Origin: Myxococcota bacterium
GTDB taxonomy: Bacteria > Myxococcota_A > UBA9160 > UBA6930
NCBI GenBank assembly: GCA_965223415.1
Contig: OZ245002.1
Span: 2,496,001 to 2,560,000 of the forward strand
Reading direction: 5' to 3'
Length of the DNA stretch: 64,000 bases
This document shows, piece by piece, positions 11,618-45,353 of the stretch. The notes under the pieces are model-generated. The model was not told where the DNA came from. It ran no database searches and saw only the letters and a list, made by a program, of their open reading frames with translations. Both the position numbers and the translations under genes were made by a program. Every line of letters begins with the position of its first letter. Position 1 is the first letter of the stretch.

Positions 11618-11814
11618 GAGTGCGCATGCTATCGCAGCCCGCGGGTTCCGAACTGCTAACGTTGCGCCCCCGCGCCGCCGACGATTCCCGGCGGACGCGC
11701 CGGCCGCGCACCCGCCGCGCCCGCACACCCGCGGGAAAGCGTCGCGGGCCGCCCCGAAGGGACGGCCCGGCGCGGGAAGCCCGGCGAGAGAAGCCAGAGA
11801 AGGGAGGAGACCGG

Positions 11815-16792: not shown

Positions 16793-16827
16793 TCGTGGCC
16801 GCGCGAGGATCCGAACGGAGGAGCCCG

Positions 16828-17328
16828 TTGCTCGATCCCCAGCTCGCGTTCATGGCGGCGCTGCTCGCGGCTCTGGCCGGCCTGGCCTGGTGGCGCGGTG
16901 GCGAATCGCTCGTTCGCCAGGGCCTCGGCGACGGTCTCGATCTGTTGCTGCGCTTCGGCCTGCTGATCGCCGTCTCCTTCCTCGCGGCGGGGCTCGCCCA
17001 GGCGCTGGTCCCCCGCGGCTGGATCGAGGGCGCCCTCGGCCACGACGCCGGTCTGCGCGGCATCCTGATCGCCACCGCCGCCGGGGCGATCACGCCGGCG
17101 GGGCCCTTCGTCTCGATGCCGATCGCCGCGGTGATGCTGCGCGCCGGCGCTTCACCGGCGGCCGTGGTGGCGTTCCTGACGGCGTGGTCCCTGCTGGCGC
17201 TTCATCGCCTGGTGGCCTGGGAGGTGCCGATCCTCGGCGCGCGCTTCGCCCTGCTGCGCTACGGGGTCTCGTTGGGGCTGCCGGTGCTTGCCGGGCTCGT
17301 CACCCGCGCCCTCGCGCGTGGGGGCTGA
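16828..17328 (+). CDS. Putative permease (DUF318/ArsP-like)
   Basis: GGAGGAG RBS, TM helices and 'TPAGPFVSMPIA'. Confidence 0.72.
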   Translation: MLDPQLAFMAALLAALAGLAWWRGGESLVRQGLGDGLDLLLRFGLLIAVSFLAAGLAQALVPRGWIEGALGHDAGLRGILIATAAGAITPAGPFVSMPIAAVMLRAGASPAAVVAFLTAWSLLALHRLVAWEVPILGARFALLRYGVSLGLPVLAGLVTRALARGG

Positions 17329-29968: not shown

Positions 29969-30021
29969 CGCCGCACGATAGCCCGCTTGCCCAGCGCCGC
30001 GTGGTTGCGGATCCTCGCTCC

Positions 30022-30861
30022 ATGAAGCGGGCGTTCATCGGCGACGTGCAGGGCTGCGCCAACGAGCTCGATCTGCTCCTCGCGCGCATCGACGACGAGC
30101 TCGGCCGGAGCGCCGAGGTGTGGCTCGTCGGCGATCTGGTGAACCGCGGCCCCCACGACCTGCGCGTGCTCGAGACCGTTCGGGCGCGTGTGGAGGCCGG
30201 CCGCGCCCGCGTCGTCCTCGGCAACCACGAGCTGCACCTGCTGCGCATCGCCTGGGGCCTGCGGGAGCCCGGCCCGCTCGACACGGTGCAGAAGCTCCTG
30301 GCTCGCCCCGACGCCCGGGAGTGGGTCGATTGGATCCGCCACCTCCCCCTCGCCCTCACCGGCAAGCTGGGCCAGCGCCGCTTCGCCATGGTCCACGCCG
30401 CCAGCAAGCCCGGCTGGTCCCGCTCGCGGCTGGCCGAACGGGCCGCGGCGGCCGCCGAGCCCCTCGCGGCCCCGGGCGAGAAGACGGCCCGCCGCTACCT
30501 GGCCGGCGACGGCAGCCGCGAGCACGACGACCTGATGCGCCTCGTCTCCTGCCGCAGCGTCACCCCGGAAGGCTGGTCGTCCAAGACGCCCGAGGAGCTG
30601 CCCGGCGACGCCGTCCCCTGGCACGAAGCCTGGCGCGAGCGCCAGCACGGCCACGGCCTCGTCTACGGCCACTGGTCCCTGCAGCGCCTCCACGTGGCAA
30701 GGGGACTGCGCGGCCTCGACACCGGCTGCGTCCACCACGGCCGCGGGGTGAACGGCTACTTGACCGCCTGGGTGCCGGACACGAAGAAGGACGATCCCTT
30801 CGACGTGCCGGACGATCGGTTCTGGCGGGTGAAGGCGCGGAGGGCGTACTACCGGGATTGA
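30022..30861 (+). CDS. ApaH-like metallophosphoesterase
   Basis: IGDVQG, GDLVNRG, LGNHE, VYGHW and LDTGCV. Confidence 0.88.
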   Translation: MKRAFIGDVQGCANELDLLLARIDDELGRSAEVWLVGDLVNRGPHDLRVLETVRARVEAGRARVVLGNHELHLLRIAWGLREPGPLDTVQKLLARPDAREWVDWIRHLPLALTGKLGQRRFAMVHAASKPGWSRSRLAERAAAAAEPLAAPGEKTARRYLAGDGSREHDDLMRLVSCRSVTPEGWSSKTPEELPGDAVPWHEAWRERQHGHGLVYGHWSLQRLHVARGLRGLDTGCVHHGRGVNGYLTAWVPDTKKDDPFDVPDDRFWRVKARRAYYRD

Positions 30862-31007
30862 TGCGGCATGCGGACCGGTTCAAGGGGCGGGTGGCGTCTC
30901 ACCCTGGAGCGTCCGCAGGACGACCGCCGCACTGGAAGCGGTTCCATCTGCGCACAAGTCGTCGATGAAGTGTCTCCGAGTGCCTCGAGCACGCTAGCCC
31001 CCGTTGC

Positions 31008-31120
31008 CTAGCGGGCCTGCGGCCGAGCCCCCTGGAGCGCACCGAGGCCGGCCGTGGCGCTCAACGCCAGGAATAGTGAGGTGCACGCTCAGTGCCGAGG
31101 TCTCGGGTCACCTGCAGCGT
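31008..31120 (-). other. Highly degenerate attC-like remnant
   Basis: Minus strand carries GCTGCAGGTGACCC (L''-like) and GCTAGGC (R'-like). Confidence 0.3.
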
Positions 31121-31231
31121 CCCCCGCCCAGGGGCTTACATTCGTCGGTGAGCCGTTGCGCCTCCCCGGCCCATGCCTGTTTCGCGCTGCGCGCCGCACC
31201 CGCTCGCGCCCATGCCGGCCAGCTACCACCT

Positions 31232-31316
31232 TCGCGAGCCACCTGAGGTGGACCCAGGCAACCGCGCGTCGCAGCGACCTGCGGCGCCCGGCAAGCTGCA
31301 GCCGCTGATTGCGCGG
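31232..31316 (-). other. Degenerate attC site
   Basis: Minus strand GCGCAATCAGCGGCTGCAGC; shares the body GAGCCACCTGAG(G/T)TGGACCCAG with the attC at 32249. Confidence 0.5.
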
Positions 31317-31392
31317 CGCCGCCATGAGCCGCAGCAGAACGAGCGCGGTTCCCTGTCCTGCGGCCTCTCGCTGTGTGCGCGATCCTTGCGAG

Positions 31393-32235
31393 ATGGCGAG
31401 GACTTCGCGTTCCAGGACAGCGCAGGGCGTCGCGGCCGAACGTGCTGTGCTGGCGGGGATGGGTGTGATTGCCGACCCGTTCGCCCAGGACATGATCGGA
31501 CCGGCGATGGGAGGGATCGTCTGGCTCGTCCGCCAACTCCCAAACCGTGTGCGCGCGCGGTCCGCAACCCTGGCAGGGCTGGCCGCCCGTGTCCTGTGGT
31601 TCGACGCCCAGGTGGTTGGAGCCATTGAAGCCGGGCTTGGCCAGATCGCGGTGATTGGAGCCGGCTACGACAGTCGGGCGTGGCGATTCCGTCGGGACGA
31701 CGTGCGCTTCTTCGAGCTGGACCTGGGTGCAACGCAGCGAGACAAGATGAGCCGAGCTCCAGGGCCCGGGCCCACCTATGTTGAGGCCGACCTGGGGACC
31801 GATTGTGCCGCAGAGGCTCTTCAGCGGCATGGCCTCGACTCGAGCCGCCCGGCGCTCTTTCTCGTCGAAGGCGTGACGATGTACCTCGTTGAAGCCAGCG
31901 CCCTGCGTCAGCTTCGTGAGCTGGCGGCATCGAGCGCCGTCGGCAGCAGGCTGGCTGTGGACTTCTACCCGCCCCACGACGCTGGGACCTCGCGAAACAA
32001 CCGGCAGCGGCTTCTCCAACGCCTATCCCGGATCGGGAGCGGTGAGGGGTTCAGGCTTCTTGTGGATCGCCGGGCGGCGGTCGGACTGGTCGAGTCATCC
32101 GGGTGGAAAGTCGAGCAAGCGACGAGCATCAGAGAAGCGGCTCGGGTCCTCGTAGGACGCGACGCTGGCCTACCAATCGAATCTGTGAACGAACACAAGA
32201 CCCTGGTTGCCGCCATTCGAGCCGGAGAGGCTTGA
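31393..32235 (+). CDS. Class I SAM-dependent methyltransferase (LCM-like), cassette gene in inverted orientation
   Basis: 'SRTAQGVAAERA', 'IGAGYDSRAWR', 'FFELD' and 'VEGVTMYL'; atypical codon use. Confidence 0.88.
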   Translation: MARTSRSRTAQGVAAERAVLAGMGVIADPFAQDMIGPAMGGIVWLVRQLPNRVRARSATLAGLAARVLWFDAQVVGAIEAGLGQIAVIGAGYDSRAWRFRRDDVRFFELDLGATQRDKMSRAPGPGPTYVEADLGTDCAAEALQRHGLDSSRPALFLVEGVTMYLVEASALRQLRELAASSAVGSRLAVDFYPPHDAGTSRNNRQRLLQRLSRIGSGEGFRLLVDRRAAVGLVESSGWKVEQATSIREAARVLVGRDAGLPIESVNEHKTLVAAIRAGEA

Positions 32236-32248
32236 TCGCCGAGGCCCT

Positions 32249-32359
32249 GCCCAACGGGTAGGCGGCCCGAAGCTCGCTGAGCCACCTGAGTTGGACCCAG
32301 TGTACCACGCCAAGAGCGGAAGCAGCGGTTCCCCGGTCAGGTCCAACCCCTTGTTAGGC
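32249..32359 (-). other. attC site (L' box deleted)
   Basis: R'' GCCTAAC just after the cassette stop and R' GTTGGGC. Aligns with the attC body at 38544-38620 but lacks ~17 nt containing CTCAGCTG. Confidence 0.75.
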
Positions 32360-32365
32360 AGCTGC

Positions 32366-32860
32366 TCACTCGACTCGATAGATCAGCCAAGCCGAAAAGA
32401 CGATGAAGCCGACGCCGAGGCATGTAAGGAGGCCCAGTTGGAAGATGCCTGGGTTGAGCGAGATCACGCTGAGCCCGGTGACCAAGAGAGCACCGATCTC
32501 GACGAAGACTGCGAGTGGCACAACCGCATAGAGGTAGGGGTAGGGACCGCGGTCGCCGGTGCGCTCGACGCTTCGATTGCGTTTCAGTACGAAGACGGAG
32601 AAGAGAAGCATCGCGAGGCCGAGCGCCCCGCTGCAGGCCACCAAGGTTGTTTCAACGGCGACGCCAGTCTCGACTAACGCCGAGGGAACGAGAGAGAACA
32701 CCAACGCCATGCCACTCCAGCCGAGCATCTGGCGGAGAGCTAGACGGTCTCGTTCGCTGAATCCGTCTTGGGCACGGCGCTGAAGGGCTGCCGCAACTCC
32801 GGAGAACCCAGCTAGGGCTACTGCAATCTCGGCTATGACCTCGTAGGACTGTAGTTCCAT
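32366..32860 (-). CDS. Cassette-borne membrane protein
   Basis: 'IAEIAVALAGFSGV', about 5 TM segments, lower GC, stop adjacent to the attC. Confidence 0.8.
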   Translation of the reverse strand: MELQSYEVIAEIAVALAGFSGVAAALQRRAQDGFSERDRLALRQMLGWSGMALVFSLVPSALVETGVAVETTLVACSGALGLAMLLFSVFVLKRNRSVERTGDRGPYPYLYAVVPLAVFVEIGALLVTGLSVISLNPGIFQLGLLTCLGVGFIVFSAWLIYRVE

Positions 32861-32876
32861 CGGCTCGCGCAGCCGC

Positions 32877-33268
32877 CTTGTGTGTTCCGCCTAGCGCCAG
32901 ATTCGGGATAGGGTAGGTGTTTCGATCGGGGAGACCGTAGCTGCCTGAAGCCAGGTGAGCCTGAGAGTTGGATGAATCCCCCGTCCTTCTCGCCATGCCT
33001 TGAAGTATGCGAGGCCCGAGAGCCCGGATCTACAAAGTCGGTAGACGAGGATTCAGGGTCGGGCGACCGAGCGAGATTCTACACCGAGGAGGGAAACGAG
33101 CGGGCCGGGAATGGGGGGCTGGCCCAGGCCTTGGTTCGTCGGCGCAGCGCCGCGCGTGTGCGTCGAGGTGAAGGGCATCTACCACCTCGAGCCGTGTCTG
33201 TGGCCGGACGACGCAGCTCGGATCGAGGTGATGGTGGCGAACCCGCGAGCCACGAAGGATCTTGGCTC
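32877..33268 (+). pseudogene. IS110 remnant (left end, bridge-RNA region and transposase fragment)
   Basis: The non-coding part aligns with 37360-37500. The fragment 'ARVCVEVKGIY..EVMVANPRA' matches the transposase at 37531. Confidence 0.8.
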
Positions 33269-33291
33269 GGGTCAGCTGCAGCCGGTTAGGC
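33269..33291 (-). other. attC left half (R''-L'')
   Basis: GCCTAACCGGCTGCAGCTGACCC, overlapping the TAA stop of the DUF2442 gene. Confidence 0.75.
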
Positions 33292-33558
33292 GGCGCCCCT
33301 CTGCTTGGGCGGCGCGGGTGCGCCGCGGAGGAGGCCTTCCGCACTGAGGTCTTCATCCACATCCGGCCAGTGAATTCCGTGGCCACCACCACAGAGCTCC
33401 CACTTCTCGCGTTGCTCACGGGTGGCGTGCAGGAGCCGAGGGAACCAAGCGAGCGGAACAGAAATGGTGCGACCATCAGCAAGCGTCGCGTGAAGCGAGT
33501 CGTCATCGATTTCGACATCGATGATTCGCTCGCCCGCTCTAGGTTCCGAAGTAACCAT
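33286..33558 (-). CDS. DUF2442 family protein (putative TA component)
   Basis: 'LADGRTISVPLAWFPRLLHAT..GIHWPDVDEDLS'. Confidence 0.9.
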   Translation of the reverse strand: MVTSEPRAGERIIDVEIDDDSLHATLADGRTISVPLAWFPRLLHATREQREKWELCGGGHGIHWPDVDEDLSAEGLLRGAPAPPKQRGAA

Positions 33559-33775
33559 TCCAGGCCTCGAAGAGAGATCGTTCGTTGGATCGAATCAGCG
33601 CTTCGATCTGTCGCAGTTCCCGCGGGCCGAACCCGAGGTTTCGCGCCAACCCAACCGGAGCGAGCCAGAACTTCGCGGTTCGATCGTCGCGATCAACGTG
33701 AACGTGCGGAGGTTCGTTCGGCTCATGGCTGTAGAAGTATATCCGGTAGGGTCCGGACCGAAGAACCGTCGGCAT
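33539..33775 (-). CDS. DUF4160 family protein (putative TA component)
   Basis: 'MPTVLRSGPYRIYFYS.E..EPPHVHV..AKFWL'. Confidence 0.9.
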   Translation of the reverse strand: MPTVLRSGPYRIYFYSHEPNEPPHVHVDRDDRTAKFWLAPVGLARNLGFGPRELRQIEALIRSNERSLFEAWNGYFGT

Positions 33776-33855
33776 GGCTCACCGCAAGGTATCGGATTCC
33801 CAAGCGAAATCGCCTTGCGGCACCACCTCGCAGTAGGAGGGGGCCGAGGCACTAG

Positions 33856-35146
33856 CAGGCTGCGGAAAAACCCCGTGCGACGGGTCGAATCGGTTGGTAC
33901 AGGCATACCGGGGGGATGGAGATGCGCGGAACCGATCGAACGCAGTCCACGATGTTCAGCTACGTGTCGCCGGAGGCGCGTGTCCCCGCCGATCATCCAC
34001 TGCGCGTGACGCGGGAGATGACGAATCGCGCCCTGGTCCGGCTGGACGGGAGGTTGCGGAAGCTGTACTCGCGGACGGGTCGGCCGTCGATTCCGCCCGA
34101 GCACCTGTTGCGGGCCCTGCTGCTGCAGGTGCTCTACTCGGTGCGAAGCGAGCGGATGCTGATGGAGCAGCTCGAGTACAACCTGCTGTTCCGCTGGTTC
34201 GTGGGGCTCGAGATGGACGACCGGGTCTGGGACGTGACGGTGTTCACGAAGAATCGGGATCGGTTGCTTCGGGGAGAGATCGCGGAGGGGTTCTTTCAGG
34301 CCGTGTTGGCGGAGGCCCGCGAGGAGGGGCTTCTGTCGGACGAGCACTTCACGGTGGACGGCACGCTGATCGAGGCATGGGCGGGGCAGAAGAGCTTTCG
34401 GCCGAAGGACGAGGACCGGGGCGGCCGCGGGGGTGGACGGAAGGCGACGGAGCGGGACTTCCACGGTGAGCGTAGGAAGAACGACACGCACGCCTCGACG
34501 ACGGACCCGGAGTCCCGGCTCTACCGCAAGGGGAAGGGGAAGGAAGCGAAGCTGTGCTTCATGGGCCACGTGGTGACGGAGAACCGGCATGGCCTGGTGG
34601 TGGCGGCCAAGACGACGCTGGCCACGGGCACGGCGGAGCGCGAGGCCTCGGTGGCGATGGTGAAGCGGGTGCCACGCGGACGGCGATCGACGTTGGGCGG
34701 AGACAAGGGCTACGACACGGTGTCGCATGTCGAAGAGCTTCGAGAGCTGGGCGTGACCCCGCACGTCGCGCAGAACGACAAGGGCCGCCGCAGCGCGATC
34801 GATGATCGAACGACGACGCACGTGGGCTACGAGATCAGCCAGCGCAAACGCAAGGCGATCGAGCAGGTCTTCGGCTGGGGGAAGACGGTAGGCCCGATTC
34901 GCAAGGTGAAGCATCGCGGCAAGGAGCGGGTGGGCTGGATGTTCACGTTCACCCAGGCGGCCTACAACCTTGTGAGGATGAGGAACCTGCTATGCCCCAC
35001 GTAGCTTGTCGGGTCGAGTGGAGGGCCCCGTTGGCAGCGAGCCGGGCGTCAACCGGCGGCAAGGCCTCGATTCCGCGCTCCTTTCCTAGCCAAAGCGCCT
35101 CCAAGGCACCGTTCTCTGCGTACCATCGGCGTTCTTCCGCAGCCTG
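33856..35146 (+). mobile_element. IS5-family element
   Basis: Terminal IR CAGGCTGCGGAA / TTCCGCAGCCTG, with CTAG duplicated at 33852-33855 and 35147-35150. Confidence 0.92.
33922..35004 (+). CDS. IS5-family transposase
   Basis: 'GRPSIPPEHLLRA', 'VDGTLIEA', 'GDKGYD' and 'IEQVFGW'. Confidence 0.95.
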   Translation: MRGTDRTQSTMFSYVSPEARVPADHPLRVTREMTNRALVRLDGRLRKLYSRTGRPSIPPEHLLRALLLQVLYSVRSERMLMEQLEYNLLFRWFVGLEMDDRVWDVTVFTKNRDRLLRGEIAEGFFQAVLAEAREEGLLSDEHFTVDGTLIEAWAGQKSFRPKDEDRGGRGGGRKATERDFHGERRKNDTHASTTDPESRLYRKGKGKEAKLCFMGHVVTENRHGLVVAAKTTLATGTAEREASVAMVKRVPRGRRSTLGGDKGYDTVSHVEELRELGVTPHVAQNDKGRRSAIDDRTTTHVGYEISQRKRKAIEQVFGWGKTVGPIRKVKHRGKERVGWMFTFTQAAYNLVRMRNLLCPT

Positions 35147-35350
35147 CTAGGACCCGGGGCCAAAGACGGAGAGATACGAGTCTAGGGCTGCGCTGAGCCA
35201 GCTGTCGTCGAGCCGCCGCAACTCGTCGATTCGCTCCTCGGGTTGGAGAATGTCGAGAAGGAGCTTCCCGAAGGGCAATTCGGGCTTGGCATCCCAGGCA
35301 CTGCCCAGCGCCTCGAGGATCTCCGCTCGCTCCTCTTCGCGGTTGGACAC
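35147..35350 (-). CDS. Small cassette hypothetical protein (67 aa)
   Basis: 'ILEALGSAWDAKPELPFGKLL'; the stop codon lies in the IS5 CTAG target. Confidence 0.6.
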   Translation of the reverse strand: MSNREEERAEILEALGSAWDAKPELPFGKLLLDILQPEERIDELRRLDDSWLSAALDSYLSVFGPGS

Positions 35351-35420
35351 CCCGCCAGCCTACCCCTAGAAGGTTCGCTCGCTGGCGCCCGATCGCGTCC
35401 AACCTGTCCGCGTTCGCCAA

Positions 35421-35521
35421 GCCGCCTTGTACCTCTGATCCAGCCGGCCAAGGAACAACCCCAGGCTACCATGGCCGTTTGAAGGGTGCTTGGAGCCGTC
35501 AGCTGCAGCCGCTTGTTAGGC
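35421..35521 (-). other. attC site whose R' end is replaced by an IS110 left-end stub
   Basis: R''/L'' GCCTAACAAGCGGCTGCAGCTGAC. The other end reads GCCGCCTTGTACCTCTGA, identical to 37297-37314. Confidence 0.75.
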
Positions 35522-35528
35522 GCCGCGC

Positions 35529-36786
35529 GGTACGGTCCGGCCACATCCTTTACAGGAGTCCAGGGACATCGTTTACACCCGGGGGATGCCCTGGATGGAA
35601 ACGGATGCAAGGAAGCAGCGGCAGGCGTTCGTTCGCGACTACGAGAGCGGTCAGTGGTCGATGAGCGAGCTGTGTCGGCGGTATCGTGTCTCCCGGCCCA
35701 CAGGCTACAAGTGGCTCGGGCGCTTCGAGTCGGAGGGGGAGGCCGGCCTGGAGGAGAGGTCCCGTGCGCCGGCTCGCTGCCCGCACAGGACGCCAGCGAG
35801 CGTGGAGCGCAAGATCCTGGCCCTTCGCGCCGAGTACGGCTGGGGTGCGAAGAAGATCTTGCAGGTGCTCGAGCGCCGGTACCCGAAGATGCAGAGGCCC
35901 GCGCGAAGCACGGTGAACGCGATCCTCGATCGCCACGGCAAGCTGCGCAAGAACCGACGTCGGAAGAAGTGGTCGCATCCCGGCGCTGCGTCGCTGTCGA
36001 CCGACCACCCGAACCAGGTGTGGCCCGCGGACTTCAAGGGCCAATTCAAGATGCGCAACGGTCGCTACTGCTACCCGCTGACCGTGACCGACCACTGCAG
36101 CCGCAAGCTCCTGATGTGCCGCGGGCTGCACTCGATTCGCACCGAGGGCGTGAAGCCGCTGTTTCGGGAGCTCTTTCGCGAGGTCGGACTTCCCGAGGCG
36201 ATTCGCACCGACAACGGTGCCCCCTTCGCATCGACCGGGATCCACGGCCTGTGCGAACTCAACGTGTGGTGGATGAAGCTCGGCATCGTGCACCAGCGCA
36301 TCCGTCCTTCGAGCCCCCAACAGAACGGGCAGCACGAGAGGATGCACAAGGACCTCAAACGCGAGGCGACCCGCCCGCCTGGCGCGAACCTCAACGTCCA
36401 GCAGCGGATGCTCGAGGCCTTTCGTCGACGCTACAACGAGGAGCGGCCGCACGAAGCACTCGGTGGAGCGTTTCCCGAGGAGCGCTACGAGCCCTCGCCG
36501 CGGCCGTACCCCAGTCGCCTCTCGCCGCCGGAGTACCCTGCGCAGATGGAAGTGCGCCGCGTGAGCCGGGCCGGGACGTTTCGGCTGAAGGCGAAGCAGC
36601 CCTTCCTGAGCAACGCACTGGCCGATGAGTACATCGGACTTGAAGAGATCGGCGACGGCATCTGGAGCATCGTCTACTACGAGACGATCCTGGGCCGCAT
36701 CGACGAGCGCAGCAGGAAGATCACCGGAGTCTGAGAGGTGTAAACGATCTACCTGGACTTGTGTAAAGGATCAGCCGGACCGGTCA
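35529..36786 (+). mobile_element. IS481-family element
   Basis: Long imperfect IRs (CGGTCCGGC..ATCCTTTACA..GTTTACACC and its reverse complement); inserted between a cassette stop codon and its attC. Confidence 0.85.
35586..36734 (+). CDS. IS481-family transposase (HTH + rve)
   Basis: MPWME start, 'WPADFKG', 'RTDNGAPF' and 'QQNGQHERMH'. Confidence 0.93.
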   Translation: MPWMETDARKQRQAFVRDYESGQWSMSELCRRYRVSRPTGYKWLGRFESEGEAGLEERSRAPARCPHRTPASVERKILALRAEYGWGAKKILQVLERRYPKMQRPARSTVNAILDRHGKLRKNRRRKKWSHPGAASLSTDHPNQVWPADFKGQFKMRNGRYCYPLTVTDHCSRKLLMCRGLHSIRTEGVKPLFRELFREVGLPEAIRTDNGAPFASTGIHGLCELNVWWMKLGIVHQRIRPSSPQQNGQHERMHKDLKREATRPPGANLNVQQRMLEAFRRRYNEERPHEALGGAFPEERYEPSPRPYPSRLSPPEYPAQMEVRRVSRAGTFRLKAKQPFLSNALADEYIGLEEIGDGIWSIVYYETILGRIDERSRKITGV

Positions 36787-36790
36787 GGCC

Positions 36791-37249
36791 CTAGAACCTG
36801 GAGCTGAGCCAGGTCGCATTCCTGGCCAACAGAAAACCCACGAGAACCCTTGCGAGAGGAGACACCAGGTACCCGATGAACGTCGTCGAACTCATCCTCT
36901 CAGGAGCTGACATGGCCATTGAAAATAGAACTACGAACGCAGAGAGAAGCGAAGCAGAGCCTGCAGCCATGAAGAAGATCCCGAGCAGAACGACGCCGAG
37001 GGAGAGCCACTGCGCCCCCGGGGCAACGCTCGGCGGGTTGTGCTCTGGCATGCTGAATGCGACGTAACGCGAGAGCACCAGGAGGACGACTCCTGGAATC
37101 CAGTTGCCAGCTAGCGTGGGCCAGGAGTCCAACAGCATCGACGAGAGGGGCCTCACAAGATCCTCGGACTGGCCCATGACCAAGTAGTAACTGGAAGCCT
37201 CGTGGGCCCATTCGGCGACACCGGACGCAAGAAAGAACAGGCCGAGCAA
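36791..37249 (-). CDS. Cassette-borne membrane protein (start uncertain)
   Basis: Four hydrophobic helices with an internal repeat 'LLG(L/I)FF(L/M)A.G'; lower GC. Confidence 0.65.
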   Translation of the reverse strand: MLGLFFLASGVAEWAHEASSYYLVMGQSEDLVRPLSSMLLDSWPTLAGNWIPGVVLLVLSRYVAFSMPEHNPPSVAPGAQWLSLGVVLLGIFFMAAGSASLLSAFVVLFSMAMSAPERMSSTTFIGYLVSPLARVLVGFLLARNATWLSSRF

Positions 37250-37309
37250 CGCCGTCCCAGTCCGCGCAACTTCGGTCAGCTTGAACCCCCCTTCGCGCCG
37301 CCTTGTACC

Positions 37310-37515
37310 TCTGAGCAGGCTCTTCGGGCCTGAGTGAGACTCCGAGATGGGTTCCCGGGAAAGGCCGTCGCTGCCTGAAGCCAGAGAGCTTGTCCGTTAG
37401 ATGGGCCTCCCGCCCTCGTCACCCATGCCGTGGAGTATCCGAGGCCCGAGAGCCTGCGTCTACAAGGTCCGTAGGTGAATGTGCAGGGTCGGGAGACCCG
37501 GGTCCCAGCTTATCA
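37310..37515 (+). ncRNA. Putative bridge RNA
   Basis: Guides CGCTGCCT (37369), TGTCCGTTAG (37391), GGAGTATC (37432) and TACAAG (37461) match the target and donor ends. RNA boundaries are approximate. Confidence 0.8.
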
Positions 37516-37530
37516 CGGGGAGGAGAGACC

Positions 37531-38526
37531 TTGAAGAAGTGTCATTACGTGGGCGTGGACGTCGGGGCGAAGGAGCTCGTCGTCGCCATCGACCGGAACG
37601 GAACTCGCGAGGGCGGGCTGGTCTTTGCGAACGATCCCAAGGGCCACCAGAGGCTGATTCGGTGGGCCACGAAGGGGAATGCGACGGCGCGCGTCGTCCT
37701 GGAATCGACCGGGGTGTACGGCCTCGACCTCGCGTTCGCGCTTCACCGTGCGAAGGCGTCCCAGGTGATGGTGGCGAACCCGCGGGCCATTGCCGCGTTC
37801 GCCAAGGCATCGCTTCAACGCTCCAAGACGGATGCGCTCGATGCGGAAACGATTCTCGAGTTCGGAATGCGCATGGAGTTTTCCGCCTGGACTCCGCCGG
37901 ACCCCCGAATTCTGGAGGTACGGGCCCTCTCCCGCCGCGTGGAGGCTCTGAGCAAGACCGTGACGCAGGAGAAGAACCGGCTCCATGCCAACGACCAGAG
38001 CGAGGAGCTCAGTGAGTTCGTGAAGCAAGACATCCGCGAACTGATCGAGCTCCTGGAGGGGCGAATCGATCGGCTGCGCAAGCAAGCGTTGAAGGTGATC
38101 GAGCAGAGCCCCGAGCTCGCCAGAGACTTCGGCCACATCACATCGATCAAGGGTATCGCCGACGCAGCCGGCATCCAGTTGCTCGCCGAGCTAGGCACCT
38201 TGCCCAAGGACATGACGACCCGGCAATGGGTCGCGCATGCGGGCCTCGACCCCCGACAGTTTCAATCGGGCACCTCTGTGCACAAGCCAGCTCGCATCAG
38301 CAAGACCGGCAACGCCCACCTTCGCCGCGCACTCTTTCTTCCTGCGATGGTCGCTGCACGCTGGGAACCGAACGTGAAGGCCTTCTACGAGAAGCTGCTC
38401 TCCAAGGGCAAAACCAAGATGCAAGCACTCGTCGCCGTCATGCGGAAGCTGCTCCACGCCATCTACGGCATGCTCCGCCACGACCAGGACTTCCTTGGCG
38501 AGAAATTCTTCGCCACGAAGGGTTGA
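37531..38526 (+). CDS. IS110 recombinase
   Basis: DEDD residues (GVDVG, LEST, KTDALDA) and catalytic QSG; TTG start after GAGGAG. Confidence 0.95.
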   Translation: MKKCHYVGVDVGAKELVVAIDRNGTREGGLVFANDPKGHQRLIRWATKGNATARVVLESTGVYGLDLAFALHRAKASQVMVANPRAIAAFAKASLQRSKTDALDAETILEFGMRMEFSAWTPPDPRILEVRALSRRVEALSKTVTQEKNRLHANDQSEELSEFVKQDIRELIELLEGRIDRLRKQALKVIEQSPELARDFGHITSIKGIADAAGIQLLAELGTLPKDMTTRQWVAHAGLDPRQFQSGTSVHKPARISKTGNAHLRRALFLPAMVAARWEPNVKAFYEKLLSKGKTKMQALVAVMRKLLHAIYGMLRHDQDFLGEKFFATKG

Positions 38527-38543
38527 CGACGAAGGGAGTATCT

Positions 38544-38646
38544 AACGGACAGGCGGCTCAGCTGCTGGGCAGGCCCCGAAGCTCACTGAGGCGCCTGGGT
38601 GGAACCCAAGAGTACCACGCCCCAGTTGGAACGCGCGGTTGCCCGG
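38544..38646 (-). other. attC central and right part (split by three IS)
   Basis: AACGGACAGGCGGCTCAGCTGCTGGGCA...TTGCCCGG continues at 40022 as GTCAGCTGCAGCCGCT. Confidence 0.82.
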
Positions 38647-38724
38647 AGGGTATAGGGAGGTCAGCTCCTTGGAGAACAGCCACCTTGGCTGTGTTCCAAC
38701 AAACACTCCCCAAGGAGACTGACC

Positions 38725-39774
38725 ATGACGACAGAGTACTTCGCTGGGATCGACTTGCATCGCACCGTGATCCAGATCTGCGTGCTGGATGCGCGGGGTG
38801 AGAAGATCGCCGAGGAGAGGATCCGCTCCGAGAGCCTTGAACAGGGCCTCGGGGTCGTGGAGCGGCTGAAGTTCTTCGGACCCCATTGCCGCGTAGCCGT
38901 CGAGGCGTTGGGCCTCAACCGGTGGTTCGTCAACGCCTGCCGAGAGGCGCAGCTCGACGTTCTGGTCTGTGATCCGCGCAAGCTCGACCTGAAGAAGCTC
39001 GGCAAGAAGACGGACCGGCGAGATGCAGCCGAGATTGCACGCCGGCTCTGGCTCGGTGATCTGGATCGGGTGGCAACGACCTACTACCCGAGCGACGAGG
39101 AGTACGGGAGGAGGAAGCTCCTTCGGGTCCGCCACCGCCTCGTCCAGATGCGCCAACAGGCCGTGAACCAGCTCCGGGGCTTCCTGAACGCCTACCGGAT
39201 TCCCGCTCCCACGAGCGCGCTCTATACCAAGCCGAGCCGGGAGAAGCTCCGCACCGTCACCCTGCCGACCCTGGAGATGCAGACCGCCTTCAAGGCCCTG
39301 CTCCAGGTGCTCGATAGCCTGCAGGGCCAGGTGCTGGCTCTCGATCGGGAGATCCGACGGATCGGGCGAGAGGATCCCGACGTCCAGGCCCTCGAGCAGG
39401 AGCTCCCGAGCATCGGGACGCAATCGGCTGCCACGCTGCTCGCCGAGATCGGCGACCCGCACCGATTCCGAGGCCCCCGTGCGGTCTCGGCCTTCGCCGG
39501 CTTCACCCCCAAGGTGAACCAGTCAGCCGACCACGCCCACCACGGCCGCATGACCCGCCAAGGCCAGGCCGAGCTCCGCTGGATCGTCAGCCAATGGGCG
39601 GTTCGCCTGATGAAGGACGACCCGTTGGTTCGTGCCTGGGCGAAGACGATGCGGACCCGCGTCCACAAGAACAAGGTCCGCATGGCCTTGGCTCGCAGAC
39701 TCCTCGTCAGCGTCTGGGTCACGCTCACCCGCGGCGAGGCCTTCGATCTCCGGAGGTGCCTTGGCATGGCGTAG
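38725..39774 (+). CDS. IS110/IS1111 recombinase
   Basis: GIDLH, VEA, KTDRRDA and NQSA; AAGGAG RBS. Confidence 0.94.
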   Translation: MTTEYFAGIDLHRTVIQICVLDARGEKIAEERIRSESLEQGLGVVERLKFFGPHCRVAVEALGLNRWFVNACREAQLDVLVCDPRKLDLKKLGKKTDRRDAAEIARRLWLGDLDRVATTYYPSDEEYGRRKLLRVRHRLVQMRQQAVNQLRGFLNAYRIPAPTSALYTKPSREKLRTVTLPTLEMQTAFKALLQVLDSLQGQVLALDREIRRIGREDPDVQALEQELPSIGTQSAATLLAEIGDPHRFRGPRAVSAFAGFTPKVNQSADHAHHGRMTRQGQAELRWIVSQWAVRLMKDDPLVRAWAKTMRTRVHKNKVRMALARRLLVSVWVTLTRGEAFDLRRCLGMA

Positions 39775-39779
39775 CCCCG

Positions 39780-39995
39780 CTCCCCCAGGACCCCTTCTCG
39801 CTTGTGTTCCAACGAAGACGGTAGGCGGGCAGCTGACTGCGGCCCATGAGCCCTTGGCCCCGATTCACCACCGTCGCCCCGAACCCCTCATTGAGCCCAC
39901 GAGGCCGACAACGCGTTTGGACTGAACCCGAACCCGCAGGGACGCAAGCCGATTCCGTTGGAGGACACCACCAAGACCCACACGTGCTTCGCGAT
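39780..39995 (+). ncRNA. Putative seekRNA/bridge RNA
   Basis: GCAGCTGAC (39829-39837) is the reverse complement of the right flank GTCAGCTGC. CGTTT and CCCTC segments are complementary to the element ends. Confidence 0.65.
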
Positions 39996-40035
39996 CATTG
40001 GAGTTGACACTCCCTAAACGGGTCAGCTGCAGCCG

Positions 40036-40805
40036 CTCCTATGATGCTAGGCATGGTTAGATGAAGCGGCCGGTGAGCAGAGGCACTGCCCACCGGCCTT
40101 TCTCAACCGGAGCGGAAGACCGGTAGCCGTCGGGTCCCTCGTGAGACCGTTAACCAGCTTGGGTCTCCGCTCCACAGCCGCAGCGAAGCTCGAACGATCG
40201 CCTGGGCCTCTTGCGAGAGCCCGTAACCAGGAGCCCGAGTTCGTTGCACCTTGGAGTCTACCATGGGGATGAACGTCGGGATCGACGTCTCGAAACACTC
40301 GCTTGATTGGACCTCAGGAAGCAAGGGGAAGCTTCAGCACACCCGCAACGAGCCGCGGGCCATCGCCCACCTCCTGCGTCGGATGGCCGAGCTCGACCCC
40401 GAGCGCATCGTCGTCGAGTCGACCGGGGGCTACGAGCGCCCGGTGGTCCAGAAGCTCGCCGAGGCGGGACTCCCGGTCGTCGTCGTGAACCCGGTTCGCG
40501 TTCGGCGCTTCGCCGAAGGCCTGGGGCTGCTGGCGAAGACGGACGCGGCAGATGCGCAGGTGCTCGCACTCTACGGCGAGAAGGCCGGGCCGCCGATCCG
40601 GCCGATTCCGATGGGGAGAAGCCGTCTGCTGGCCGATCTCATCGCACGGCGCCGCCAGCTCGTCTCGATCCTGGTGGCCGAGAAGGGTCGGCGGGAAGCG
40701 GCGCCTCGAGCTGCGCAGGCCTCGATCACGAGGATTCTCCGTGCTCTCGAGCGCGAGGTCGACGGCATCGACCAGCGCATCCAGAAGGCGATCGAAGACG
40801 ACCTC
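40036..40805 (+). mobile_element. IS110 element, 3'-truncated by IS21, with 5' bridge-RNA region
   Basis: Starts at the CT after GCAGCCG. Guides GTAGCCG (40123), TAACCAG (40151) and AGGAG (40229). Confidence 0.8.
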
Positions 40806-40835
40806 TGTCGAGGGACGTCATCTCTTGCGCGCTAA
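40263..40835 (+). pseudogene. IS110 recombinase, N-terminal half only
   Basis: GIDVSK, VESTGGYE and KTDAADA; the frame is broken at the IS21 end (40806). Confidence 0.9.
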
Positions 40836-40940
40836 GAGGACGGCTAGTTTTGCGCACCCCCCTGGGTTGATGTTCGGTTCTTCCTTCTTCTCTTCCGCTC
40901 TCCGAAGGAGAGCACGGCCGTCAGGCCGCCCTCTGGGGCC

Positions 40941-41741
40941 TCAACGCTGGGCGCTTTGCCCCGCGGCCTGCTCGAGCTCGCGGAGCCGGTAGCTCCGCCC
41001 CGAGATGTTGAGCACCTGGCTGTGGTGGAGGAGGCGATCGAGGATGGCGGTGGCCAGCACCTCGTCGCCCGCCAGCACCTCGGGCCAGTCGGCGATGCCC
41101 TTGTTCGTGGTGATCAGGATCGAGCCCCTCCCATAGCGGTAGGAGACGAGCCGGAAGAAGAGGCTCGCCTCCTGGCGCGTCATGGGCTCGAAGCCGACCT
41201 CGTCGATGACGAGGAGCGCCACGTTCATGTGCTTGCGCCGCCGCAGCCGTTGCGGGCTGATCTCGGCGTCGCGCTTGAGGGCCGCCAGCAGGTCCTCGAG
41301 GCGATGGAAGGCCACGGAGAAGCCGTTCTCCACGGCCCGCACCCCCAGGGCCACCGCCAGGTGGGTCTTGCCCACTCCCGGCGGACCCTGGATCAGCAGA
41401 CTCTCCTTGGCCCGGATCCACGCGCAGGTGCCCAGCGTCTCGATCCGGCTCCGCTCCACACTCGGCTGGAAGGCGAAGTCGAAGTTGCCGAGGGTCTGCC
41501 CCGTGGGAAGGCCCGAGAGACGGAGCGAGGTCTTCATCCTCCGCTCCTCGCGGTGCTGCAGCTCGGCCTCGAGCAGCAGGTCGAGGAAGCGGTGGGGCAC
41601 GAGGTCGTCCTTGGTCGCTCGGGCCAGCTCCTCGCCGATGTGCTCGGCCGCGTGATGGAGGCCGAGGCGCACGAGCCGCTCGCGGGTCGGGTCGAGATCC
41701 ACCTTGCCGCCCTTCTTGGGCACCGGGTTTCCCGCCGTCAT
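40941..41741 (-). CDS. istB: IS21 helper ATPase
   Basis: GPPGVGKT, LLVIDEVG, ITTNK and ILDRLLH. Confidence 0.95.
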   Translation of the reverse strand: MTAGNPVPKKGGKVDLDPTRERLVRLGLHHAAEHIGEELARATKDDLVPHRFLDLLLEAELQHREERRMKTSLRLSGLPTGQTLGNFDFAFQPSVERSRIETLGTCAWIRAKESLLIQGPPGVGKTHLAVALGVRAVENGFSVAFHRLEDLLAALKRDAEISPQRLRRRKHMNVALLVIDEVGFEPMTRQEASLFFRLVSYRYGRGSILITTNKGIADWPEVLAGDEVLATAILDRLLHHSQVLNISGRSYRLRELEQAAGQSAQR

Positions 41742-43024
41742 CGCGCCACCTCCGCCAGATCGGCATAGAGGTCGATCGGCCGCTGCTCCGGCTCCATCGC
41801 CCACAGCTCCTGGAGGCGTCGACCCATGCGCCCGAGCGGTACGGGCGCCTCCACCCCCTCCGTGCTCGGCCCCTCGTAGTGGCTCGGGTCCAGCAGCAGG
41901 CGGCTTCGCGTGTGGCGCGGGTGCGCGGCCACCACCGAGCCCTCGGCCCAGACCTGCACCTGCCGGGCGCAGCCGCGCACCTCGACGCTCTGCTCGACGA
42001 AGCGGAAGGGGACGCTGTAGGTACGCCCCTCGAAGCGCACCGTGGCGTCGCGCCCGACACGTCGCATCACGGCCAGGTCGAAGGGCTCGGGAAGCCGCTC
42101 GGGCAGGGCCCCGAGATGGGGCTTCTCCGCCTCCCACGCCTGGAAGACCGTCGTGCCCGTCGCCGGGCACTGCCGCCGGTGGCTCGAGCGCGCCACCTGG
42201 CCGTCCGTCCACGCTTGCAGCGACTCCAGGCTCTCGTGCTCCCGCCGACGCGGATCGAAGCCCCGCCGGTGCCCCAGGATCCGACGCTCCACCTTCCCCT
42301 TCTCCTGCGGCTGGCGGGGACGGGTGGCGTCCACGTGGAAGCGAAGGGCCCCGGCATAGCTCGCGTAAGCCGGGTTCACCGTCCCCCATGGCCCCGCCCC
42401 CTTCGCCACCGCTGTCTTCACGTTGTCGACCCGCAGCACCGCCGGCACCCCGCCCAGCCGCTCGAAGGCCCGGTTGTGCACGTCCAGCCACGCCAGCGTG
42501 TCCGCCCGCTCCGACCACACCACCGCTTCTCGCCGCGAGTGCGAGAGCACCAGGTGGAAGGCATGCAGGTCCACCTCCTGGCCCCCGATCCGCACGCCCG
42601 GAAACTCGCCCCAGTCCACCTGACCCTGCGCCCCGGGCGGTGTCTCCACCCGACGCCGGCTCCGCACCTTCGGTCTCGGGAACCGGGCCCGCACGTACCG
42701 CTGCACGCTCTTGGAGCTCCCCGTGTACCCGTGCTCCTCCACCAGGAACTCGTGAAGCTCCTGCAGGTTCACGCCACGGCCTCCCGAGCTCGCCTCCAGC
42801 CACTCCGCGATCACCTCGTGGACCGCCTCGGCCAGGAAGGGCTTCCCGCTCCGGCCGTCTCGCGCCCCCTCCGCCAGCCGCTTCAGCCGGTAGCGCACCG
42901 CGCTCTCCCGGATCCCCAGCTGGCGGGCGATCTCCCGGTTCGAGCACCCCCGCTCGTGCAGCACTTCGATCGTCATCACTTCCTCCTGCCTCAGTCGCCG
43001 CTGCCCCACGCCCCCCTCCCTCAC
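41738..43024 (-). CDS. istA: IS21 transposase
   Basis: HTH, 'ETPPGAQGQVDWG', 'DNVKTAV' and 'KGKVER'. Confidence 0.95.
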   Translation of the reverse strand: MREGGVGQRRLRQEEVMTIEVLHERGCSNREIARQLGIRESAVRYRLKRLAEGARDGRSGKPFLAEAVHEVIAEWLEASSGGRGVNLQELHEFLVEEHGYTGSSKSVQRYVRARFPRPKVRSRRRVETPPGAQGQVDWGEFPGVRIGGQEVDLHAFHLVLSHSRREAVVWSERADTLAWLDVHNRAFERLGGVPAVLRVDNVKTAVAKGAGPWGTVNPAYASYAGALRFHVDATRPRQPQEKGKVERRILGHRRGFDPRRREHESLESLQAWTDGQVARSSHRRQCPATGTTVFQAWEAEKPHLGALPERLPEPFDLAVMRRVGRDATVRFEGRTYSVPFRFVEQSVEVRGCARQVQVWAEGSVVAAHPRHTRSRLLLDPSHYEGPSTEGVEAPVPLGRMGRRLQELWAMEPEQRPIDLYADLAEVAR

Positions 43025-43274
43025 GGGGAACGTGCCGCGCAGCGGCTCAACAGGAGGTGCGCAAATCTACGTGTCCTCTTAGCCCTCGAATATCACGTCC
43101 TGCGACAGTGCCGTCTGGTGCCGCCGCAGTTGTGCGTTCGAGTCCCCACCGCGTTTGCGAAATTGAGAACTGACCCTCAGGCTCGCGGAAGGAGGGTCAC
43201 TCGTAGCTTCCCGCCTAACCGCGAATGCCTGATCCAATAGGCTGAAAGGAATTCGAACCCCCGACCCTTGTATC

Positions 43275-43495
43275 TACTCCACTCACCCGGATCTGGTTCA
43301 ATAGGGTCAGAACGGGTTTCGGGGGAGGGTCGCCGTCCCGACCCAGAGGCATGGTCCTCGTACCTGAGAGAGGCGCCCTCGCCCGATCTCGCAAGCTCGA
43401 ACGGTATCCCGAGGCAGCGGTCTGCCGCTCGTCCTCGCATGCACAAGGAAGAGCACCGAGGTCGGCACCGAGGCTCCCGACGCTCCCGTTCGAGG
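43275..43495 (+). ncRNA. Putative bridge RNA
   Basis: Guides CCCGACCC (43337), ACCTGAG (43362), ACGGTATC (43401) and CACAAG (43442). Confidence 0.78.
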
Positions 43496-43507
43496 AGGAA
43501 GAAGGGG

Positions 43508-44683
43508 ATGCGCTTCGTTGGGATCGACATCGCCTCGGAAACGCACGTCGTCGCGATGGTGGGAGAAGACGGGGGCGTGCTGCTGAAGCCGGTCTCGTTC
43601 CGGGAGGAGGCGGCTGGCTACGCACTGCTGTGGGAGAAGCTGGGAGGCCCCGAGGACACGCTCGTAACGCTCGAGGCAACGGGGCACTACTGGAAGAACC
43701 TGTTCGCGGCGCTTGCGGCGAGGGGTTTTGCCGTGGCGTTGATCAACCCGCTGCGCAGTCGCCGGTTCGCACAAGAAGACTTGGAGCGGACGAAGACCGA
43801 CGCAATCGATGCGCTCGGCCTGGCTCGCTTCGGAGCACAGAAGCGTCCGAGGGTGACTCGCCTTCCGGACGCGGCGACAGAAGAGCTTCGTGAGCTCGTC
43901 CGGCTCCGCGATCGTCTGGTTCAGGACTTCGGGGACTGCACCCGGCGGCTCCACCGCATGGTCGATCTGGGCTTCCCAGAGCTCAAACGGTACGTGAAGC
44001 ACCTCGATAGCCAGCTGTCGACGGGGCTGCTGCGGGAGTACCCCACGGCAAGAGCCTTCCAGGAAGCCTCTGTGGGGCGCGTGGCAAAGCTTCGCTACGA
44101 CGGTCGTCATCGTGTAGGCGATGCGCTCGCGAAGCAGCTCGTCGAGGCTGCGCAGAACTCGGTGGGCGCCCATCATGGCCCGGCCTACCAGGTGCAGGTG
44201 CGTTACCTGTGCGAAGACATGGACGTCTTGCGCAAGAGACTCGGCGACATCGACCGCGACATCGCGGATCAGCTATCCGCGCACGAGGTCGGAAGCTTGC
44301 TGACGACGATCGATGGGATCGGGCCGACGACGGCAGCACGGCTCATCGCGGAGCTCGGTGACCCGGCCGACTTCGCCACGGCCGCAGCCCTCGCCGCCTA
44401 CGTGGGCGTCGTTCCAGGCCTAAAGCAGTCGGGCAAGCGCCAAGGCAAACGCGGGAACCTCTCGCCAATCGGTCACGCGCGGCTACGTCGCGCACTGTGG
44501 ATGCCGACGTTGGTCGCCGTTCGGAAGAACCCCTGGGTGCGGGCCCACTACGAGCGGCTGCGCGACAACGGCAAGCCCGCAAAGGTCGCGCTGATCGCCT
44601 CGACGAGGAAGCTGCTCATCGCGGTTCACGTCGTGGCGAGGACCCGCAAGCCCTTCGTTCCACAGCTAGAGACCAACCCATGA
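43508..44683 (+). CDS. IS110 recombinase
   Basis: GIDIA, LEATGHY, KTDAIDA and KQSG. Confidence 0.95.
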   Translation: MRFVGIDIASETHVVAMVGEDGGVLLKPVSFREEAAGYALLWEKLGGPEDTLVTLEATGHYWKNLFAALAARGFAVALINPLRSRRFAQEDLERTKTDAIDALGLARFGAQKRPRVTRLPDAATEELRELVRLRDRLVQDFGDCTRRLHRMVDLGFPELKRYVKHLDSQLSTGLLREYPTARAFQEASVGRVAKLRYDGRHRVGDALAKQLVEAAQNSVGAHHGPAYQVQVRYLCEDMDVLRKRLGDIDRDIADQLSAHEVGSLLTTIDGIGPTTAARLIAELGDPADFATAAALAAYVGVVPGLKQSGKRQGKRGNLSPIGHARLRRALWMPTLVAVRKNPWVRAHYERLRDNGKPAKVALIASTRKLLIAVHVVARTRKPFVPQLETNP

Positions 44684-44773
44684 ACCGAGAAAACCGGGCC
44701 CAGCCCCTTGCTGAAGATCACGGTATCTCAGGTTCGAAGCCTGGGGGTCGGGGGCTCTCCCACCCCACGCGTC

Positions 44774-45322
44774 CTAGTCGAGGAATGCCCACAAGAGCCG
44801 TCGGCTCCTCGCGTCCAGGCTCCCCGGGCTCGACACCAGGTAGAGATCCCCGGCCACGTCCTTGATCAGGAGGCCGCCGCCGGGCATCTCGCGGGGCCAC
44901 TCGTCCCGGAGGGTCTGGAAGCTGCGCTCGCCCTGGGCCGTGCGCACGCGGAAGGTGCGGATCTCGATCTCCTCGTCCACGTCGAGCACCGCCTGGATCT
45001 CGAGCACGAAGCCCGCCTCGAGCAAGGCCGTGCCCAGCGCCCGCTGGGCCGTGTAGGGGAGGTCGGTGAGGTCGCGCACGAGCGCCACCTCCTCCTCGTC
45101 CCGGTCACGGAGCGAGACGTAGCGCGACGGCTTCGACCAGGGGAAGCAGCGCACGGGCCGCACCGAGCAGGTGCGGTCGGCAGTGCGCGCCCAGAGCTGG
45201 CCGTCGGAGCCACGCCACAGCTCGAGGCCCGCCATCGGGCGCCGCGGAGCCTGGTGCGCCACGGCGCGTCCGCGCCGGCTGGGTGCGAGGGTCTTCGGCT
45301 CTCGTCTCTGCGGGTCGTTCAT
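44774..45322 (-). CDS. DUF1854 domain protein
   Basis: 'VRPVRCFPWSKPSRYVSL' and 'LIKDVAGDLY'; downstream of the ABC transporter. Confidence 0.82.
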   Translation of the reverse strand: MNDPQRREPKTLAPSRRGRAVAHQAPRRPMAGLELWRGSDGQLWARTADRTCSVRPVRCFPWSKPSRYVSLRDRDEEEVALVRDLTDLPYTAQRALGTALLEAGFVLEIQAVLDVDEEIEIRTFRVRTAQGERSFQTLRDEWPREMPGGGLLIKDVAGDLYLVSSPGSLDARSRRLLWAFLD

Positions 45323-45353
45323 GGTTGTCCCTCGTTTCTTTCGTTCGTCTCGT

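Follow-up and report, generated by a model that had tools for sequence, protein, structure and literature searches.

We found that ISa, a 1238-bp insertion sequence (IS) of the IS110 family, is very probably an IS621-like element whose bridge RNA targets the R' ends of the attC sites of its host. The element lies within a window of 64,000 nucleotides, the whole stretch of DNA analysed here, from a Myxococcota bacterium whose genome is a single contig of 5.83 Mb with 71% G+C. The new points are the position of the target and the convergence with an IS1111-like element, ISb, in the same attC. The mechanism is that of IS621, and since it adds nothing past IS621, the advance is incremental.

ISa occupies positions 37304-38541 of the window on the plus strand. 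Its edges were set by the CT core, repeated at 38542-38543, and by both junctions of six copies. All six full-length copies in the genome are 100% identical and have CT on both flanks, and two further partial matches correspond to one decayed relative inside the window. An earlier note on this DNA had given the range 37302-38551. The element is indeed there, and the extra bases are the core and the right target half, outside the element proper. We located all the strings quoted in that note, none more than one base away from where it implied them to be.

The non-coding DNA of ISa is distributed unevenly: 227 nt (37304-37530) precede the TTG start and 15 nt (38527-38541) follow the stop. Under the criterion given in the accessible part of PMC11187229, which separates the two types by their non-coding regions, this long upstream and short downstream region makes the layout IS110-type and rules out the IS1111-type. 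The recombinase gene (37531-38526, plus strand, 331 aa) begins with a TTG that follows GGAGGAG and aligns with the ATG of relatives. Its product contains the domains DEDD_Tnp_IS110 (PF01548, 3.8e-26) and Transposase_20 (PF02371, 1.5e-20) of Pfam and reaches 218 bits against the NCBIfam model NF033542, "IS110 family RNA-guided transposase" (cut-off 140). The transposases of IS621 (8wt6, E 2e-46) and ISCro4 (9t56, E 4e-49) align with it over the full length. Judged by sequence, ISa appears to be an active IS110-type (IS621-like) insertion sequence. The domain and family matches, the alignment with 8wt6 and the loop order described below all agree with the previous description of an IS621-type element with the corresponding guide layout and a CT core.

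A TTGACG at 38523-38528 on the plus strand, overlapping the stop codon of the recombinase, is a candidate -35 element. In circularised ISa it would be separated by 17 nt from TACCTC (37306-37311), a weak -10 candidate. CTTGAC is kept at the right ends of ISa relatives. Because the -10 is weak, we regard the circle-junction promoter as putative. Contigs of sequencing runs X1, X5, X6 and X7 contained no joints, and their loose ends repeat flanks known from the genome. A tRNA check of window positions 30000-46000 found none.

The target of ISa in the window is GCCGCCT^AACGGACA, and the recombination target can be read as GCCGCCTAACGGAC. By flank comparison, its left half, GCCGCCT, was placed at 37295-37303 on the plus strand, where 37302-37303 are the CT core. 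Viewed on the minus strand, this segment is the distal part of the attC R' box (AGGCGGC) together with the start of the next cassette. The left-flank consensus is common to four of the six copies and recurs in relatives. In the top-strand reading of the attC, the target becomes ..GGTCC GTTAG^GC GGC, and the AG of the R' box GTTAGGC corresponds to the CT core. A segment at 38542-38644, minus strand, comprises the R' core (GTTAG), the L' arm and the variable centre of the attC and includes the right target half (38542-38551); it was located by an nhmmer match (2534643-2534542) and the attC alignment. An unoccupied twin of this attC was found at L017:15227-15326.

The core sites of attC follow the consensus RYYYAAC ... 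GTTRRRY. The attC family of the host genome is about 140 nt long and ends GCCGCCyAAC...GTTAGGCGGC, with inverted core sites GCC[C/T]AAC ... GTTAGGC that fit this consensus. The same genome encodes an integron integrase at C1:2062393-2063328, which scores 449.7 bits on TIGR02249 (cut-off 265), a cut-off exceeded in none of 14 control genomes. Beside intI we found an attI-like GTTGGGC, a first cassette encoding a T5orf172/MUG113 protein and then attC#1. This recombination site after the first cassette is also about 140 nt long and ends GCCGCCCAAC ... GTCCGTTAG. A profile of two sites, searched with nhmmer, found the family in only three clusters in the genome. The first is the integron array itself, which with intI and the attI-like site spans C1:2.062-2.078 Mb. 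The second is in the window, on the minus strand (32266-32363, 35444-35528 and 38542-38643), and the third is at C1:2.7737-2.778 Mb. Both of the latter contain cassette-like ORFs, with no integrase among the 25 ORFs scanned in the window cluster or among those scanned in the 2.774-Mb cluster. An intact, empty attC free of ISb lies at C1:2773670-2773814. On the bottom strand it forms an imperfect hairpin (-36.6 kcal/mol, z -2.17) in which the R boxes pair, followed by a one-sided 4-nt spacer and an L stem with one bulged base. Based on sequence, fold and context, the identification of the ISa target with the R' end of this genome's attC sites seems to hold. The idea that the guide is aimed at the integron crossover core, put forward in the earlier note, is borne out to this extent, the core being the R' end (GTTAG^GC) of the genome's attC and recurring in relatives.

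Three of the six ISa copies are inserted in attC R' ends (GTTAG^GC), namely the copy in the window, L003 of the 2.77-Mb cluster and L005 in attC#1, 2.7 kb from intI. All three are antisense to the cassettes. The remaining copies (L001, L002 and L006) have unrelated surroundings in which 6 to 12 of the 12 target nt recur, and nhmmer found no member of the attC family near them. What the predicted guide of ISa reads is a short sequence and not the structure of an attC. Unoccupied exact GCCGCCTAACGG 12-mers occur only twice in the 5.8-Mb genome, both times at attC R' ends.

Related elements in other genomes were collected by a search of the phylum, covering 401 genomes, of which 14 (G000 included) have a recombinase relative at E up to 1e-60. 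This phylum-wide search supplied the working set, a single-protein search for related loci having returned only 3 loci. The recombinases of the relatives are 55-83% identical, and the elements are found at the same attC end in different attC sequences. An AAC right junction together with a flank of 100 nt or more was available for seven relatives (L018, L019, L022, L024, L025, L026 and L027). A complete partner attC arm ending GTT(A/G)G(A/G)C GGC is present in L018, L025, L026 and L027, and the flanks of the other three do not show one. An intI above the cut-off was detected in four of five tested genomes of relatives. In G213 it is only 1.1 kb from the IS on one contig, on the side opposite the expected attI position. 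The loop scaffold retrieved 25 metagenome contigs, with 12 loci having at least 90 nt of right flank. Three of these passed a strict test (exact GTTRRRY and an MFE pairing hairpin), and a relaxed arm alignment showed the partner arm in 6 or 7. About half of these metagenome flanks do not show the partner arm, two of them being too short. Taken together, the relatives of ISa in other genomes and in metagenomes appear to sit at the same attC position.

The attC occupied by ISa in the window also contains ISb (38645-40021, plus strand), an IS110-family element whose layout is IS1111-like, its ORF being preceded by 80 nt and followed by 247 nt. Comparison with the empty sites placed ISb directly beside the L'' arm of the attC, antisense to the cassettes. 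That arm was identified by the attC alignment at 40022-40037 on the minus strand (GTCAGCTGCAGCCGCT on the plus strand). In place of the R'' core of the attC, which it has displaced, there now stands ISc (40038-40805), the third IS110 element here and a truncated one. Four copies or part-copies of ISb exist in the genome, and its recombinase shares 26% identity with that of ISa over 155 residues.

The Discussion of a later paper (PMC3001079) reports that the IS1111-attC group (ISPa21, ISPst6, ISKpn4 and ISPa25) inserts close to the 5' end of attC, and ISb occupies this same 5' part. As far as the accessible sources describe them, these elements resemble ISa in that they belong to the IS110 superfamily, are RNA-guided and insert site-specifically in attC, antisense to the cassettes. 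They differ in that their guide (seekRNA) lies downstream of the gene, whereas the predicted guide RNA of ISa is upstream, 15 nt being all that is found past its ORF. Moreover, since ISa sits in the 3' R' core, and the group and ISb near the 5' end, the position of ISa is distinct from that of the group, as had been claimed before. The searched literature, from which the founding IS1111-attC papers fell outside the scope, contained in its accessible parts no description of an IS110-type element that has its guide on the 5' side and sits at the attC R' end.

The integron could nevertheless be incidental. ISa may be programmed for the short GC-rich GCCGCCTAACGG in a local palindromic repeat, the repeats being REP-like and not functional attC sites. 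The three copies outside the attC family and the lack of an integrase among the 25 ORFs scanned in the window cluster fit such a reading, and the accessible part of PMC11187229 indicates that IS110 elements are commonly found in repeated palindromes (ISPa11 and REP). However, the repeats begin directly after the first cassette beside an intI that scores above a curated cut-off, and they have the ends RYYYAAC...GTTRRRY. The relatives, one of them 1.1 kb from an intI, lie elsewhere at the same end of different attC sites, and the place published for the IS1111-attC group is occupied by an IS1111-like element. We therefore consider an incidental link unlikely and continue with the attC R' end as the target of ISa.

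The 227-nt left end of ISa is predicted to contain a conserved RNA with two internal loops. In its structured core (37350-37505, plus strand), an outer stem pairs 37350-37359 with 37497-37505, and there are two loops, one target-binding and one donor-binding. An alignment of 11 left ends (A1), composed of ISa, nine relatives from other genomes and the decayed copy of the window, supports the outer stem and two modules, each with a stem, an internal loop and a 4-bp stem. The model has 37 pairs, with 93.8% of the cells paired and compensatory (two-sided) changes at 16 pairs. None of 500 shuffles equalled these values, and slid controls were only 22-55% paired. Folded as a single sequence, the ISa left end was no better than shuffles (z -0.92). 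Rfam gave no family for the window at gathering scores, nor for 37250-37600 at E up to 1. We predict that the left end encodes a two-loop bridge RNA directing insertion as in IS621.

The putative guides are found on the 5' and 3' sides of both internal loops in the order left target guide (LTG), right target guide (RTG), left donor guide (LDG) and right donor guide (RDG), an order defined for IS621 in the accessible part of PMC11208160. The two target-loop guides specify the 14-nt sequence GCCGC-CT-AACGGAC. The LTG, GTCGCTGCCTG, is at 37367-37377 on the plus strand, on the target-binding loop's 5' side and in the same sense as the left flank. Within it, CGCTGCCT (37369-37376) matches the left flank CGCCGCCT (37296-37303) at 7 of 8 positions, and the sole mismatch, a guide U facing a bottom-strand G, is a wobble pair. 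On the 3' side of the same loop, the RTG (37391-37403, plus strand) consists of TGTCCGTTAG followed by ATG, and TGTCCGTTAG (37391-37400) is the exact reverse complement of CTAACGGACA (38542-38551). In the second loop, the LDG GGAGTATCC (37432-37440, plus strand) matches the right end ...GGAGTAT-CT. The RDG, (TC)TACAAG(G) at 37459-37467 on the plus strand, occupies the place equivalent to the RTG and is the reverse complement of the junction CT-TGTA. Thus, GGAGTATC (37432-37439) and TACAAG (37461-37466) both match the donor junction GGAGTAT-CT-TGTA.

We compared these matches with 20000 mononucleotide shuffles of the 227-nt left end. An exact 10-mer match of the RTG kind arose in 3 shuffles, a left-flank match of at least 7/8 in 3773, a left-donor match of at least 7/8 in 940 and a right-donor match of at least 6/8 in about 61%. 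By these counts, the RTG match alone is significant by itself, and those of the LTG, LDG and RDG each arise commonly by chance; the 7/8 match of the LTG is weak by itself and the RDG match taken singly is uninformative.

The guide layout is convincing through the order of the segments, their placement in the loops and their apparent covariation with the flanks in relatives. In L024, a left flank ..GCCGCAT is accompanied by the guide ..gccgcAt, and in L029 and L030 the left flank TAGGGGCT by the guide ttaggggct. On the right side, L028 has the flank CTCCGCT.. and the guide tgtagcggag, and the right flank CTAACAG of L055 covaries with its RTG. The donor guides behave similarly, with the right end GAGGATCT and the LDG ggaggatc in L027, and the right end GAGCATCT and the LDG gagcatc in L029/L030. 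In the metagenome loci, the RTG nucleotides before GTTAG change together with the right flank (GACC with AACGGT or AACGGA, GTCC with AACGGA, GCGC with AACGT and GACT with AACAG), in matches that are imperfect, usually 6-8 of 9. Since guide and flank shift together in several lineages, we read the guides as covarying with both target and donor. These joint changes, the compensatory changes that keep the scaffold stems and the RNA guidance of the homologous IS621 system, stated in the accessible part of PMC11208160, also make it highly improbable that the protein alone picks the target and that the guide-like matches are by-products of the history of the element. Hardly tenable is, finally, the proposal that the attC-like flanks are a composite ISa-ISb unit or the ends of ISb itself, with ISb as the target of ISa; ISa does abut ISb-containing sequence in two of its six copies (the window copy and L003), but we rejected this reading because L005 has no ISb, the two ISa-ISb pairs differ by many flank substitutions and have unrelated outer flanks, the attC at C1:2773670-2773814 is intact and free of ISb, and L018, L026 and L027 are beside complete attC sites with no second IS.

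The presumed guidance of ISa by a bridge RNA is best compared with IS621 and ISCro4. Both share with ISa full-length homology of the recombinase, the upstream non-coding region and the CT core, and, as far as the accessible sources show, two RNA loops whose guides, LTG, RTG, LDG and RDG, agree in order and in strand sense. The bridge RNA of ISa is predicted here from sequence; the accessible part of PMC11208160 describes the IS621 system as RNA-guided. ISa has a longer RTG pairing than these two, with as many as 10 nt for the copy in the window. The targets of IS621 we take to be REP-type repeats of E. coli. Its target rows in the accessible part of the Durrant supplement read ATCCGGCCTAC, whereas ISa is directed to the attC R' end. 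The donor junction of ISa, ..AGTAT-CT-TGTA.., is nearly equal to a row of the Durrant supplementary alignment, and in a single uncommented row in the part of that alignment available to us, the target GGATGCCGCCTAACGCCCGAGTTAGC and the guides that match it are similar to those of ISa. The readable part of these supplements contained no exact occurrence of GTCCGTTAG, GUCCGUUAG or CCGCCTAACGG.

Other mobile elements share parts of this lifestyle. According to the accessible part of PMC3001079, the group IIC-attC introns are likewise specialised for attC and inserted antisense, but they are retroelements that use ribozyme and reverse-transcriptase chemistry and lie near the attC 5' end. IS4321 and IS5075, as described in the parts of the sources available, are IS1111-type elements that are also aimed at a conserved end of another mobile system, the inverted repeats of the Tn21 family; they differ from ISa in target, subgroup and guide position.

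Under the mechanism that we propose, one loop of the bridge RNA would guide the circle junction of ISa itself (GGAGTAT-CT-TGTA) and the other the 14-nt attC R' sequence, in the bottom-strand reading of ...GTCC GTTAG^GC GGC. The bridge RNA would be made from the junction promoter, bind the recombinase and steer the reaction in the manner of IS621. Through recombination at the CT core, ISa would then come to lie 2 nt beyond the G/TT crossover of IntI, antisense and heading the downstream cassette.

Crossover by IntI falls between the G and TT of the core. After insertion of ISa, the attC-side junction reads GTCC GTTAG up to the boundary and ATACTCCC beyond it, the G/TT crossover point staying on the attC side, 2 nt from the ISa junction. 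Since the resulting GTTAGAT fits GTTRRRY and the crossover point is retained, the sequence does not imply a loss of function of the site. The statement in the earlier note that ISa destroys the IntI recombination site is not supported by this junction; besides, only 3/6 copies are in attC, the others being in look-alike sequences. The ISa right end GTATCT is conserved across the clade, so the GTTAGAT junction would be regenerated at every insertion. With a crossover 2 nt past G/TT and a right end that restores a consensus R' box, the attC could stay usable, and the sequence is equally compatible with ISa travelling at the front of the downstream cassette, as its first part. A broader reading, which we offer as possible if rather doubtful, is that the ISa clade is a dedicated integron hitch-hiker, with a bridge RNA fixed on those 14 nt of attC that are most conserved. 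In that case the attC could stay usable, IntI could excise and move the IS with the downstream cassette, and two RNA-guided IS lineages, the IS110-type with a 5' guide and the IS1111-type with a 3' guide, would independently have acquired guides for opposite attC ends.

Integrons are the main gene-capture system of bacteria. As for the effects of IS on cassette arrays, "limited experimental evidence exists", in the words of the accessible part of PMC11616780. In the present case, both ends of a single attC are taken: a predicted natural bridge RNA points to the crossover end, and an IS1111-like element has the other. This provides a compact natural system for asking if IntI recombination is blocked, spared or exploited by insertions of this kind. 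It also bears on the way in which guide RNAs come, in evolution, to be directed at conserved sites belonging to other mobile systems and on what a long natural RTG, of about 10 nt, does for specificity.

Two smaller observations concern the surroundings of the ISa copies. In the window, a probable cassette ORF of 152 aa with no family match (36791-37249, minus strand) starts about 50 nt past the R' site in cassette orientation. In attC#1, the ISa junction was also struck by a DDE transposon, with a probable TTAG duplication.

The chromosomal integron of this genome, in region L017 (G000:C1:2060001-2080000), has an apparently intact intI, and all three of its recognised attC sites, the recombination sites of integron cassettes, hold IS110-family elements. 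The IS621-like element ISa, with its predicted bridge RNA, occupies the first site beside intI (attC#1), and ISb is found in the next two. The first cassette of the array encodes a T5orf172/MUG113-domain protein. IS21-like, IS481-like and DDE insertions were also found in this region. The exact junction of the R' end of attC#1 with ISa is taken up by a DDE_Tnp_1_4 transposon (L017:4550-6072) whose terminal repeats are CCCTGATCCGGCATTG, and there is probably a TTAG duplication there.

In the window, about 12 kb (33000-44750) consist almost throughout of nested insertion sequences lying over an attC cluster: an IS5-like element (33916-35001), an IS481-like element (35586-36731), four IS110-family elements and one IS21. 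No integrase was found with this cluster among the 25 ORFs scanned, and the third-codon-position G+C (GC3) of its ORFs is below that of the remaining window. Beside ISa, an ORF of 152 aa on the minus strand (36791-37249) starts about 50 nt past the R' site. It has no family match in Pfam or NCBIfam, and is probably a cassette gene that ISa has cut off from the upstream cassettes.

ISb, an IS1111-like element (38645-40021), is inserted antisense to the cassettes and adjoins the L'' arm of attC sites, and its copies in L017 span positions 11283-12690 plus 15167-15226, and 15895-17273. The 3' non-coding region of ISb contains GCAGCTGAC (39829-39837), complementary to the right flank of the element, GTCAGCTGC; it may be a seekRNA guide. 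The attC that holds the window copy of ISb is also occupied by the third IS110-family element, ISc (40038-40805), which separates the L'' arm of this site from its R'' core. ISc is present as one copy in the genome. Its 5' non-coding region is long, and its ORF (40251-40832) includes only the DEDD domain. It is split and cut short by an IS21-family element (40806-43107) with minus-strand ORFs for IstA and IstB, which has about 20 copies in the genome and at other places divides copies of ISb.

A decayed relative of ISa (32872-33294), whose recombinase gene is gone, retains a left end with 76% identity to ISa over 137 nt. It begins after GCCGCCT, and the predicted right target guide in its left end reads tgagagttgg, unlike that of ISa. 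An L''-R'' arm of attC (GGTCAGCTGCAGCCGGTTAGGCGGC, at 33270) comes after this remnant.

The fourth IS110-type element, ISd (43269-44745), has five copies. Its left flank, GGAATTCGAACCCCCGACC-CT, resembles the reverse of a tRNA T-arm. ARAGORN detected no tRNA gene at this site (window 30000-46000), and a similar flank also occurs at C1:5391908.
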